Assembly (NCBI GenBank): GCA_947630195.1
Contig: CANRGQ010000003.1
Coordinates: 1-35,130, forward strand
Direction: 5' to 3'
From: an uncultured Bacilli bacterium
GTDB lineage: Bacteria; Bacillota_I; Bacilli_A; RF39; UBA660
Length of the DNA stretch: 35,130 nt
The first letter of the stretch is position 1, and every line of letters begins with the position of its first letter. Made by a program: the position numbers and the translations under genes. The notes under the pieces were generated by a model, which did no database searches, was not told the DNA's origin, and saw only the letters and a program-made list of their open reading frames with translations. Below are positions 16,407 through 20,119 of this stretch, piece by piece.

Positions 16407-16472
16407 AAAAAGAGAATGAGTTTTATTTTATTTATTCTCACTTTCTATAAATACATAGATTATAAAATTTCG

Positions 16473-16556
16473 GTGCCGGTAATATTTTATATAAATATAT
16501 ATAATATTCTTCTACCGGCACGCCTTTAATTTTCGCCATATGGCCGCCTTGGGCGA
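16473..16556. repeat. GC-rich hairpin cluster directly after the 394-aa gene
   Basis: GTGCCGGTA (16473-16481)/TACCGGCAC (16513-16521) around a self-complementary AT stretch; GCCATATGGC and CGCC-TTG-GGCG hairpins within 16535-16555. Confidence 0.7.
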
Positions 16557-16558
16557 TA

Positions 16559-17743
16559 TTATGCATTATTCTTAGTTGTGATTCTAAATGGGTCAGTTGC
16601 TGTACCTGCACCCGTTAAATTTATCGCGGATTGAAGATAGAAGACAGGTCGAACCGCATACGCATAGTCGATAAGATACCACCACAAGCCGCCGTTCGTC
16701 TCTACACACCACGCCTCGTAAGTGCTGCCATCTCGGCCCCTGTAGTAGCCATACCTAGACATGGTCCATTCATTTAAAGAATTTCCACTTAATGTTGAAC
16801 TTGTGCTCCATCCATTTTTTACATATAACCAACTACTTGTTCCAGTACTTGCATTATTAAAATCTGTAGCATACATTAAAGCAACTTTATTTGCTGCACT
16901 TTGACTTGTTTTTGGTTCTACTGTTCCTGGTGTACTTGTTTGGTCTGCATTATACCATTTTTGACTTGTTACTATACTGTCCCAATATGTTCCGTTTGGT
17001 TGTTTGTTTTTTATGTTTGTATTATACCATGATGTTACATGACTTTTGGTACTTGATGAATCCCATTTAATATCACTAGTGTAATTACTATACCATACTT
17101 GACTTGTACTAGATGGTGTTGCCTTGATTAATTTTAATTGATCTTTTTTTAATCCTAACGTATTATCATCTGCTGAAGTTATCCCTATTATTCTAAACAT
17201 ATATTTATCTGGTGTTTTTAAACACTCATCTTTATCGGTTGTTCCAAAACATATATAATTATTTGTTACGGCTGTGGTTGTCCCTTTATATCTATACATT
17301 CCATCCACTGCAGAAGTTAAGTTTAATGTTGAACCTTTTGTTTCTTCTAATGCTTGTAATAAAGGTCTACCTTTAGCAAAGTATAAGGTACAATAAATAC
17401 TATTTTTAGTATCTATTGTGGCATGATAAGTTGATAAATCAAAATGCAGTATATTTGTATAATCTATTTCTTTTCCATCACTATCTGTACATTCAGCTCC
17501 CACAAATCCGTGTGTTGTGGGACTTGGCCATGAATCTCTATTATCTGCTTCATGCCATTCATCATCTTCACTATCTTGTACCCATATCGCTATTGATTTA
17601 TCATTACTTAATATATTATTAGTTTCTATTTCTTCTATCTTATTAGGTTTAGTATTTAAAGTTCTTATTATATTATAACTTTCTCCTAATATTAAAATTC
17701 CTACTATAATTATGATTATTGTTAATATTTTATCTTTCTTCAT
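16559..17743 (-). CDS. Membrane-anchored surface protein with C-terminal CLec/DUF6273-like domain, putative DGR target
   Basis: N-terminal TM; YRYKG...NNYICFG...FRIIG core; C-terminal EWTMS...AWCV...G...AVRPVFYL...GAGTATDPF. Confidence 0.75.
   Translation of the reverse strand: MKKDKILTIIIIIVGILILGESYNIIRTLNTKPNKIEEIETNNILSNDKSIAIWVQDSEDDEWHEADNRDSWPSPTTHGFVGAECTDSDGKEIDYTNILHFDLSTYHATIDTKNSIYCTLYFAKGRPLLQALEETKGSTLNLTSAVDGMYRYKGTTTAVTNNYICFGTTDKDECLKTPDKYMFRIIGITSADDNTLGLKKDQLKLIKATPSSTSQVWYSNYTSDIKWDSSSTKSHVTSWYNTNIKNKQPNGTYWDSIVTSQKWYNADQTSTPGTVEPKTSQSAANKVALMYATDFNNASTGTSSWLYVKNGWSTSSTLSGNSLNEWTMSRYGYYRGRDGSTYEAWCVETNGGLWWYLIDYAYAVRPVFYLQSAINLTGAGTATDPFRITTKNNA
16641..16760 (-). other. 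Putative DGR variable region (VR)
   Basis: 66/120 G+C (55%) versus 35/120 (29%) in 16771-16890 of the same gene; many NNC/NNT codons between fixed GCG TGG, AAC GGC and GCG GTT CGA CCT anchors. Confidence 0.6.
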
Positions 17744-17758: not shown

Positions 17759-18578
17759 CTATTTACTAAAGTAGGCATAACAAGTATTTGGCCCAGTAGT
17801 ATCTATATGAAAACCTTTTGATATATCGTATGTAAATGTTGTACTTGCTTTTTTACTTTTACACTCATAATTTGTCATAGAATAACCATCTGGTACTTGA
17901 TTATATAATTTATAAGTTTTGTCATTATATTTTCTATCCCCTGTTGCATCTTCTATATAAGCATAAATAATTACATCTGATAATTTATCTCTATCATAAT
18001 AAAGTCGACATACTACTTGCGTAGGTTTTGCTTTTTCAGTATATTCAATATGAACTGTTCCATCTTCTTTAATAGTATAATTATCATAAGTTGCATCTCC
18101 TCCGGCTGCAGGATAACAATTAGATTTATCTCCATTTATTTGATATCCACTGGCGGGTACATATTTACTCTCTTTATATTTGTTAGCATTATCAGGCATT
18201 TGGGTATAAAAGATTATATTAACATCGGTATTTTTATCTATTGGACCTTGTTTAACTGATTCCCCTTCACCAGCAAAGTTTCCTACTTTGGATGTAAATA
18301 TAGGGACTGGAGCCATTTCATAATTATAGTAAGCATGGGTTTTATTAATTGTCACATTTATTAGTAACAACGCAAAAAATACTAATACGAATATTCCTAA
18401 TATTAGTTCTTTATTTTTTAATTTTTCTTTTATATTATAAAGTTTATCTTTAAAGTTATTTGGTATGAATACTAAAGATATTAAGGTGTTACAATAACCC
18501 CCCCCCGATTTGGGTATTTAGAACTACTAATGTAAGTATTGCTACATATAATACTATTCTTTTAATTTCTTTCTTCAT
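17759..18578 (-). pseudogene. Surface protein gene frameshifted at a G9 tract (phase-OFF contingency gene; 272 aa if G8)
   Basis: AGAGGT SD + ATG 18578 gives MKKEIKRIVLYVAILTLVVLNTQIGGGLL*; the frame of ORF 17759-18370 is open back to the tract and closed just above it (TAA 18520-18518). Confidence 0.75.
18498..18506 (-). repeat. Poly-G9 homopolymer, slipped-strand phase-variation tract
   Basis: Nine consecutive C on + strand in very AT-rich DNA, located at the frame junction; G8 or G11 restores frame. Confidence 0.8.
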
Positions 18579-18747
18579 ACTCTTACCTCTTTTATATTAT
18601 TAATTATTATTTATATTTTTATACTTATGTTGTAAATACCGAATATTAATTACAAAATAAAAATAATATTCTTCTACCTTACATTTAAATAATATAATAT
18701 TTATTCTATTTAGTCAATACAGAAAAACAAAAAATTTCTTCTAGAAC

Positions 18748-18776
18748 TTGACATATACCGAGTATTCCAATAAAAT
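18748..18776 (+). promoter_or_regulatory. SigmaA promoter for 439-aa ORF
   Basis: TTGACA-17bp-TAAAAT. Confidence 0.75.
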
Positions 18777-18799: not shown

Positions 18800-20119
18800 A
18801 TGGAAAAAGAAGGAAAAAAGATAGATTCTGATAGATTTCATAAAATATATAGAATACCAAATATTGATACTCATGGGGAATATTTAACAATTAGAAAATT
18901 TTTAAAGAAGGATTTTGACTCTTTACCAAAATTAGATGATTTTATTAATACATACATGAATAATTATAATATATGGCACGAAACCGATGAGGAAAGAGAA
19001 GCTAGAGCCAATCGAGAATACAACCGAGAAATTGATGGCTATAATTTTTATAAAAAGAATTTACTTACAGCAATTAAAAAAATCTTAGAAAAAGATGAAA
19101 ATGAAATTTTAGATAATGTGTATGTTAAATATATTCATTGTATATATCCAGATGTTACTACAAGACCTGAATCTTTTGTAAGATTACCATATTATGAACG
19201 AAATAGAAATATTAGAGATAGACATGGCATTTTAATTTTAAAAACTAAGGATGGTAAATCAGCAATTTTAGATGTTATTCATAATCCTTATGCCTATAAT
19301 CAAAATAGCAAAAAGAATTTAAAGATAAAAAATATTCTCAAATTTGCCAAATATGAGTATAAACCATTACATCCCAATCCTGATAAAAGAATTCCTGTAA
19401 TTGCTCATAATTTAGAAACTAATTTAGAAGGCTTAATTAATTATAAAACATGTCAAATTGAAAATGAAAAATTTGATAAAATATATTATAAACAAAATAA
19501 ATTATTTTCTGGTTATCTCCTATTAGTGGGAGAGAGAAATGGAAAACTTGGAACCACAGATGGCTATGTTCCCCCAAAATTCGATGATATAAATGGTGTT
19601 ATTAGAGTAAATTATTATGAAGTTCCAAAAGATACTCCTTGTTATATAACTACCTTAAATGGTAAAGAAGGCGCCTATTTTATTGGTAAAAGAGGCCACT
19701 ATAGATATGTTGATAACGGACTTCATGAACGGACATTTGCCCAAACCAGTTTGAAAAAAATTATAATTCCTAATTTCTTTGATAAGGTTATCTTATTAGA
19801 TTTTAGCCCAATTTGTCATCCTAATCATACAATGGAAGAATTTATTTCTAATCCAATTTTTAAAGTTGTTCTTAATGGCAAAGAAGGAATATATTTAGGT
19901 GGCGAAAAGAAATTTTTAGCCCCTCCTATCTTTGATATTGATGGTATATCTAACTATGATTTAGATAATCAAACAATTGAAGGTTATATTGATGGTATTC
20001 ACCATATTTATCAAAATGGTATCTTAAAAAGAATAGAAACTGTTGATTTAACTATTTCAGATGATACTAAAGAATCATTAAATATATTTATTAATAAAGT
20101 TCGAAAAAGAACTAGATAA
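18800..20119 (+). CDS. Hypothetical 439-aa protein with C-terminal WG/KWG-like beta repeats
   Basis: AGGAGG SD; repeated NGKLG..YVPPKFDDI, NGKEG..IIIPNFFDKV, NGKEG..LAPPIFDI. Confidence 0.7.
   Translation: MEKEGKKIDSDRFHKIYRIPNIDTHGEYLTIRKFLKKDFDSLPKLDDFINTYMNNYNIWHETDEEREARANREYNREIDGYNFYKKNLLTAIKKILEKDENEILDNVYVKYIHCIYPDVTTRPESFVRLPYYERNRNIRDRHGILILKTKDGKSAILDVIHNPYAYNQNSKKNLKIKNILKFAKYEYKPLHPNPDKRIPVIAHNLETNLEGLINYKTCQIENEKFDKIYYKQNKLFSGYLLLVGERNGKLGTTDGYVPPKFDDINGVIRVNYYEVPKDTPCYITTLNGKEGAYFIGKRGHYRYVDNGLHERTFAQTSLKKIIIPNFFDKVILLDFSPICHPNHTMEEFISNPIFKVVLNGKEGIYLGGEKKFLAPPIFDIDGISNYDLDNQTIEGYIDGIHHIYQNGILKRIETVDLTISDDTKESLNIFINKVRKRTR

Follow-up and report, generated by a model that had tools for sequence, protein, structure and literature searches.

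A likely slipped-strand poly-G switch in a leader module of surface-protein genes, preceding a putative remote DGR target in an uncultured Bacilli bacterium

Homopolymer slippage leading to ON/OFF phase variation is a textbook mechanism. The G-tract pilus switches of Bifidobacterium breve UCC2003 (bbr_0113a/b and bbr_1889a/b; PMC9187656) resemble the locus described here in that the first gene of an operon, here termed the partner gene, has a G run near its 5' end, within the coding part. In both cases the operon belongs to a surface structure of a gut commensal, the default state is OFF, and a one-base change joins two ORFs (PMC9187656). As that paper describes them, the B. breve switches occupy one or two loci per genome, serve sortase pili and exert polarity on downstream genes (PMC9187656), whereas here a common leader module sits on at least eight paralogs, no Rho was found in the genus and a DGR target lies downstream. 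Campylobacter jejuni (loci cj1139, cj0031 and capA; PMC3401435, PMC6321876) offers another likeness, namely a low-GC genome in which nearly all long G runs are switches. Its phase-variable tracts are described as having a modal length of nine and single-base steps (PMC3401435), with 53% at G9 and 26% at G10 (PMC6321876). However, the C. jejuni tracts belong to varied, mostly unrelated genes, while here the tract travels as a promoter-leader module in one family and, unlike in C. jejuni, MutS and MutL are present. In the account of PMC3401435, mismatch-repair-proficient meningococci show lower rates.

Regarding sequence diversification, cellular DGRs (Architecture D; Treponema denticola tvpA; PMC5758913, PMC4891356) share with the present system an RT with Avd-like and MutS-like neighbours, an adenine-biased VR at the C-terminus of a CLec fold, remote targets, some non-A changes and in-frame indels. 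The 2017 DGR survey gives a maximum of seven non-adjacent targets and describes MSL-type cassettes (PMC5758913), and DGR activity in trans and remote targets were already known (PMC10907252, PMC4891356). Compared with that survey, we count 29 target-family matches and nine complete templates, all but one at a distance from the RT, and slippage switches accompany some members of the family. The Bacteroides type V pilus tip adhesins (bioRxiv 10.1101/2024.11.15.621889) are similar in placing a DGR target right behind structural partner genes in a gut bacterium, but these pili are lipoprotein structures of Gram-negative bacteria, and their DGR is carried in cis on ICEs; the terms "phase vari" and "invertible" are absent from the main text of that preprint. 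Finally, in the tapA-sipW-tasA system of Bacillus subtilis, TapA donates its N-terminus to TasA (PMC10151520). The likeness consists of SipW-type peptidases and TasA-like "ATFAYF" secreted proteins in our genome, and of a disordered N-terminal strand that follows a T-x-A-Y motif in the partner, as it would in a strand donor (PMC10151520). In contrast to that system, the partner has two small beta-grasp-like domains rather than a TasA/Ig fold, and the strand likeness is not significant.

The switch mechanism itself is known, and it is the setting that is unusual: a common slippage-switch module over a large DGR-diversified adhesin family, with many targets and many stand-alone templates for one RT. 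Our literature searches returned no combination of a slippage switch and a DGR, nor any account of phase variation or of a DGR in RF39, although supplementary tables of DGR surveys could list such loci.

The leader module and its G9 tract

The window (the whole stretch of DNA analysed, 35,130 nucleotides) is contig C3 of assembly G000, which measures 1.17 Mb at 27% GC and is 81% complete. Genes around the cassette include spoIIR, mntP, spoVT, mfd and gyrA/B. By protein comparison, relatives of the encoded proteins are from uncultured Bacilli, and the best-matching sample runs are rabbit gut metagenomes; run X1 contained several pieces of 165-288 nt with zero differences from the window. No RNA run was among the listed runs matching the window.

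All features of the cassette lie on the minus strand. An SD sequence, AGAGGT (18585..18590), with AGAGG before the ATG in all eight copies of the genome, precedes an ATG at 18578, from which 24 codons (MKKEIKRIVLYVAILTLVVLNTQI) lead into a G9 tract (18498..18506, C9 on the plus strand; also read in contigs of runs X1 and X4-X7) followed by TTA TTG TAA. The tract begins 72 nt past the ATG, which makes it a mononucleotide run of at least eight in the 5' coding region, and the OFF-state product is by translation a 29-aa leader peptide (18489..18578) ending in GGGLL-stop. The frame read downstream stays open over 252 codons, from 18517 to its stop at 17759, and the partner gene in this frame (17759..18505) consists of a linker, an ancestral hydrophobic signal segment, a THA motif followed by YY, an N-terminal strand and a pair of small beta domains. 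The stretch from the ATG through the last sense codon measures 817 nt, and the two parts are in frame at G8 or G11, which by arithmetic would give 272 or 273 aa, respectively. The ATG of the target gene, at 17743, sits 15 nt beyond the partner stop. The original prediction had described an SD-led start running into G9 and stopping two codons later, a single protein at G8 or G11 (272 aa at G8), and a partner ending 15 bp before the target, all of which agrees with these coordinates. Its remark that the 203-aa ORF called by the program lacks an SD-led start was also borne out, as this ORF begins at a TTG inside the second hydrophobic segment, without an SD. Two N-terminal hydrophobic segments had been proposed as well; both are present, but the first is only moderately hydrophobic (19-residue Kyte-Doolittle maximum of 1.6-1.7 in two natural ON copies) and is an add-on.

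The left edge of the module is a sigma70/sigmaA-type promoter-like site, TTGACT-17-TATTAT (18689..18717, 10/12 match), found in a scan whose sites were overall no commoner than in shuffles; the site is conserved in the sister copies listed. Across the copies listed, homology extends from this site through the SD, leader and tract into the linker. The switch, noted first at this locus, is not specific to it: the module is common to at least eight loci, mostly OFF, and the suggestion to look for similar G-tract leaders elsewhere yielded eight copies in this genome and 26 in three species. The partner family of G000 has 30 members with a T(H/Y)A(Y/F)Y motif. Among these, seven have a visible tract, one lies on a contig that begins one base past the tract, one is cut, and 21 lack a G run and have an SD-ATG of their own immediately ahead of the second hydrophobic segment. 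As 21 of the 30 members are leaderless, the second segment is the ancestral signal and the leader an addition that brings the switch. The eighth tract of the genome, on C36, is cut off from its gene. At fusion loci (C2 in G000, and frames of 540-652 codons in relatives), leader and N-terminal strand are joined straight to the lectin. The leader-tract pattern was not found in 150 other genomes drawn from the family. A scan over all species returned 24 matches, 17 in two uncultured Bacilli assemblies and seven in unrelated taxa, which were left out of the 26-copy tally, and a metagenome pattern scan returned 118 stretches, with none leader-like among the matches listed.

A motif resembling TTCGGTATTTACAAC is located between the promoter and the SD (window ~18628-18642, minus strand); whether or not they carry the leader, nearly all partner genes have it. 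Leaderless partner genes often have a short divergent upstream gene, XRE regulator-like by eye. Divergent from the cassette of the window is a 439-aa ORF (18800-20119, plus strand) without a Pfam match, which has a strong promoter-like site (11/12) at 18748-18776 and a 97%-identical copy in G020.

Long G runs are concentrated in few contexts. G000 has 13 G/C runs of at least 8 and none of length 7 by whole-genome count, and the 13 comprise eight in the leader and five between -35 and -10 boxes (TTGACA/TATAAT). Geometric extrapolation predicts 0.05 to 6 such runs, depending on the ratio chosen; the count alone is moderate evidence, and the common contexts are a stronger sign. Long G runs are present in 35 of 42 genomes of the genus. 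The five promoter-spacer G8/G9 runs of G000 (C1:21264-21272, C57:8010-8018, C11:3221-3228, C59:1393-1401 and C76:23-31; spacer 18-19 nt) precede TasA-like gene pairs and surface proteins of 470-490 aa. Other multi-copy G9-G11 elements, L013 (G042) and L014 (G043), have 17 and 23 matches listed, respectively, with differing flanks; one of the two is apparently non-coding and one lies a few codons past an ATG.

Tract lengths, in-frame alleles and competing readings

The tally of tract lengths covers 26 copies, i.e., 8 in G000, 12 in G020 and 6 in G052, those of the relatives being taken from the best matches listed. G9 occurs in 22 (85%), G10 in two, and G8 and G11 in one each, which leaves two copies in frame; the downstream frame is open for 243-652 codons in every complete copy. 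Length differences are seen between close counterparts: the G000 paralog on C68 is G11 and ON while its 96%-identical counterpart in G020 (L202, P0217) is G9 and OFF, and G9 on C10 of G000 corresponds to G10 at L197 of G020, the two having an upstream flank in common. At four orthologous sites (C2, C14, C42 and one flanked by C29), each species read shows G9. In-frame alleles exist in G000, G052 and other assemblies. At the protein level, P0210 (270 aa) and P0211 (205 aa) of public assemblies are identical over their overlap and P0208 is another in-frame form; three of ten protein clusters contain both full-length and short forms, although the choice of the gene caller could also explain short forms such as P0211. 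In other species the same gene family has its G run elsewhere: of the 25 upstream regions read for G001, G008 and G055, six contain G8/G9 within the promoter spacer, and one of the four read for G010 bears a G10 within the n-region of the signal.

At the locus itself, one X1 contig spans the tract with G9, and 10 of the 32 records listed for X4-X7 span it, all gap-free and one with at least 31 letters on each side. G8, G10 and G11 were not seen at this tract among the X1 and X4-X7 records listed, which are contigs and as such lose rare variants and merge paralogs. A branch at the tract suggested by contig ends at 18506 was rejected, since a variant at 18476, one word length off, accounts for these ends. 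The expected range of tract lengths (G8 to G11) was found among paralogs and relatives, whereas the contigs listed for the locus, from five samples and two studies, are G9 throughout. Taken together, the occurrence of G8, G9, G10 and G11 in paralogs and relatives and the natural ON proteins support well the phase-switch reading put forward originally. The G9 share of 85% is tighter than the 53% of C. jejuni and would fit a slower switch or selection for OFF. The mismatch-repair frames are intact (MutS 855 aa, MutL 580 aa), and the switching rate may therefore be low.

Several other readings of the tract should be weighed. G9 could be an assembly homopolymer error for a true G8 and an intact gene, given that homopolymer calls may be unreliable, as noted for B. 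breve (PMC9187656), and that many copies lie at contig ends. This is extremely unlikely, being largely refuted by the recurrence of G9 across contigs and assemblies: 6 of 8 copies in G000, 16 of 18 in the two other assemblies, and the contigs of all five samples. Alternatively, the tract could be a fixed recoding signal, where +1 ribosomal frameshifting or transcriptional slippage would yield a low level of full protein from unchanged DNA. The prevalence of G9 in the tally and in every contig listed would agree with this, as would a leader region that folds somewhat better than shuffles (z -2.18, 5/200). Nevertheless, we consider recoding improbable, since G8, G10 and G11 alleles occur and the same family elsewhere has promoter-spacer G runs, which are able to act at the DNA level only. 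Furthermore, the genome has tRNA-Gly(CCC), which means that GGG is no starved codon, and no structure above shuffles was detected 3' of the tract (z 0.51).

The absence of a second lesion from every complete downstream frame also speaks against a dead paralog, in which an ancestral leader frameshift would have been fixed and spread by gene conversion with the G run incidental, and so do the in-frame alleles in several assemblies and the location of 13 of 13 long G runs in leader or promoter spacers. Such decay appears quite improbable, even though most copies are out of frame and the leader codons are under weak selection (by a rough count, a pairwise dN/dS of ~0.6 upstream and of 0.47 immediately downstream). 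It is very unlikely, too, that the 29-aa membrane peptide is a functional product or regulatory leader and that the partner is made by re-initiation further down: the peptide ending in GGGLL-stop is indeed the default product of 22 of the 26 copies, but leader copies lack the ancestral SD-ATG before "IKEKL", and the TTG/GTG starts left to them are located within the signal segment, with no SD.

We therefore favour the slipped-strand reading, building on what was read directly, i.e., the frame logic, the module copies, the lengths of 8-11, the in-frame proteins, the RT-Avd cassette, the templates and the adenine bias. The G9 tract is likely a slipped-strand ON/OFF switch, now OFF, belonging to a module that precedes at least eight surface-protein genes, and the lectin tip encoded downstream is likely rewritten by a remote DGR. 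Replication slippage would gain or lose one G, such that in most cells the majority of leader copies would be OFF and a few ON. The ON protein would be exported via its second, ancestral signal segment. One consequence for annotation is that OFF alleles are entered in databases as short, signal-less proteins.

A probable remote DGR target and its putative adaptor

The gene downstream of the partner (16559..17743) encodes 394 aa; its product has a membrane segment at the N-terminus, a single small beta domain that is a homolog of those in the partner, and a predicted C-type-lectin-like domain. Its VR (16650..16756) is adenine-biased relative to stand-alone template repeats elsewhere in the genome. 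Against the best template, on contig C35, differences fall on 18 of 34 A but only 12 of 67 other positions (p=4.7e-4, neutral scoring), the latter comprising C 4/19, G 6/28 and T 2/20. The 15 complete VRs of the genome differ at 234 of 448 A versus 145 of 973 other positions; 14 of the 15 reach p<0.01, that on C32 is unbiased, and one further VR is truncated. Even the best of the nine complete templates leaves 12 non-A differences and a 6-nt indel in the window VR. Lacking a clean match, this VR may be old, mosaic, or served by a missing template, in an assembly that is 81% complete and has further templates cut at contig ends.

The RT, of 374 aa, lies on contig C4 together with one template, one Avd-like gene and two MutS-like genes. 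The Avd-like gene matches NF033474 at E=2e-8 and 34 bits, below the 80-bit cut-off, and the two MutS_I-like genes are weak matches with scores below cut-off. No TR or RT was found within the window, where a repeat scan gave weak AT-rich pairs alone. The nine complete templates (~270 nt, on nine contigs) have conserved flanks and a -10 box, with more of them cut, and eight of the nine are distant from the RT. The target has 29 matches in G000 (tblastn), and 17 of the 42 genus genomes contain similar template units or VR matches. Two other RTs of the genome were rejected as the DGR enzyme, that at C28:11113-12144 being retron-like and that at C27:11729-12991 belonging to a group II intron. As to the distribution of templates, ten units (C4, C12, C16, C19, C35, C39, C50, C59, C63 and C67) are conserved in both the 5' and the 3' flank and have a -10 box each, and only the C4 copy adjoins the RT; G020 has at least 14 near-full-length template matches.

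The structure model of the target (pLDDT 85.9) is CLec-like, with a match to the N-terminal part of 9qa6 (Z 15.5; 201 residues at rmsd 3.1); next come numerous C-type lectins and TvpA, at Z 5-7 (2y3c at Z 5.5), and the best fimbrial fold match is 4eps at Z 7.1. The tip of the target is thus predicted to adopt a CLec-like fold at the C-terminus. With its adenine bias, the RT-Avd-like cassette and this model, the downstream gene behaves as the DGR-like target it had been called. The idea of two layers of variation in one operon needs a correction, as the DGR machinery is remote and serves ~29 paralogs from many stand-alone templates. Right after the target stop, an inverted repeat, GTGCCGGTA...TACCGGCAC (window 16473-16521, minus strand), is common to the C8, L197 and L208 cassettes, among others, and might serve as a terminator or as a homing hairpin of the DGR.

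The target is probably also made when the partner is OFF, because a search of 42 genus genomes, of which 18 reach at least 90% completeness, found no Rho and the gene has its own SD; the region of this SD is no more folded than shuffles (z 0.27). Hence OFF probably removes the partner only, unlike the polarity invoked for B. breve in PMC9187656. The switch would accordingly govern the partner and not the lectin, save at the fusion loci, where leader and lectin form one gene.

The partner model (pLDDT 70) has 32 disordered N-terminal residues followed by two small beta domains. Its best fold match, a weak one at Z 3.6, is to SraP/MucBP-type domains, and Foldseek with this model returned nothing at E<=0.001. 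Pfam and NCBIfam hold no family for partner or target (one paralog is weakly DUF6273), sequence searches of solved structures returned nothing for either protein, and the Atlas has no entry for their sequences. The small domains of the partner are homologous to the N-terminal domain of the target (E=6e-4). A model of the partner-target complex scored 0.51, versus 0.00 for the best of three controls; among solved pairs 116 of 157 attain this mark and among mismatched pairs 2 of 215, with 18 of the solved pairs and both of these mismatches at <=0.60. Contact agreement between runs was at least 0% and partner pLDDT at least 65. The model thereby lends weak support to binding of the target lectin by the partner. 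The G020 cassette with the closest partner (93%) has a near-identical target N-terminus and a different lectin part, which fits pairing via the small domains, and the lack of both small-domain sets at fusion locus C2 is as expected if these domains only link the parts. The mature partner might serve its cognate lectin as an adaptor, by way of the homologous small beta domains.

Maturation may involve a SipW-type peptidase. The THA motif (18332..18340), before YYNYEMAPVPIFTSKVGNF, is a putative SipW-type cleavage site with A and Y invariant in 69 homologs, and the ON protein would be cut between THA and YY. The genome has two SipW-like peptidases (TIGR02228 matches over cut-off), and family cassettes lie directly upstream of SipW-like genes on C10 of G000 and C3 of G020. 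The SipW-signal model TIGR04088 had no match in nine partner proteins scanned and weak matches in 15 of 99 TasA-like homologs. TasA-like proteins with G9 promoters are present in the genome, and the profile match between partner and TasA-like proteins (E=0.13) is not significant; a fibre in which the partner strand joins TasA-like proteins is a lead only.

On the side of diversification, the remote RT and stand-alone templates would rewrite the lectin tips. A broader reading, which we offer tentatively and hold to be rather doubtful, is that one RT and some ten or more template RNAs rewrite ~29 lectin tips in trans, while poly-G leaders and promoters pick which adaptors are made and so which lectins are mounted, possibly by strand donation onto TasA-like fibres with G-run promoters of their own. 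Should slippage switches over a DGR-diversified adhesin family be real, as the main reading has it, the bacterium would vary both the adhesin partners that it makes and what they bind, and a gut commensal with a 1.2-Mb genome would unite a choice between ON and OFF, the shuffling of cassettes and targeted hypermutation within a single gene family. It would also offer a natural system for studying how the cost of hypermutation is limited and how templates and targets pair in trans.

The surroundings of the cassettes differ between species. Junctions are seen at window positions 16407 and 18730, with L215, L216 and L219 as further loci concerned: in G020 and G050, the DNA past 18730 continues into a HAD-metS region and the cassette is absent. 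The spoIIR gene of G020 is preceded by DNA corresponding to C66 of G000 (C66:2285-2355), and G000 has the reciprocal joins; the joins at 16407/18730 may reflect either a real translocation at the cassette or a mis-join. For the G020 cassette L202, the same site is empty in G000 (C32:3467-3474), with flanks overlapping by 8 bp. Judging from such sites, cassettes come and go between species.
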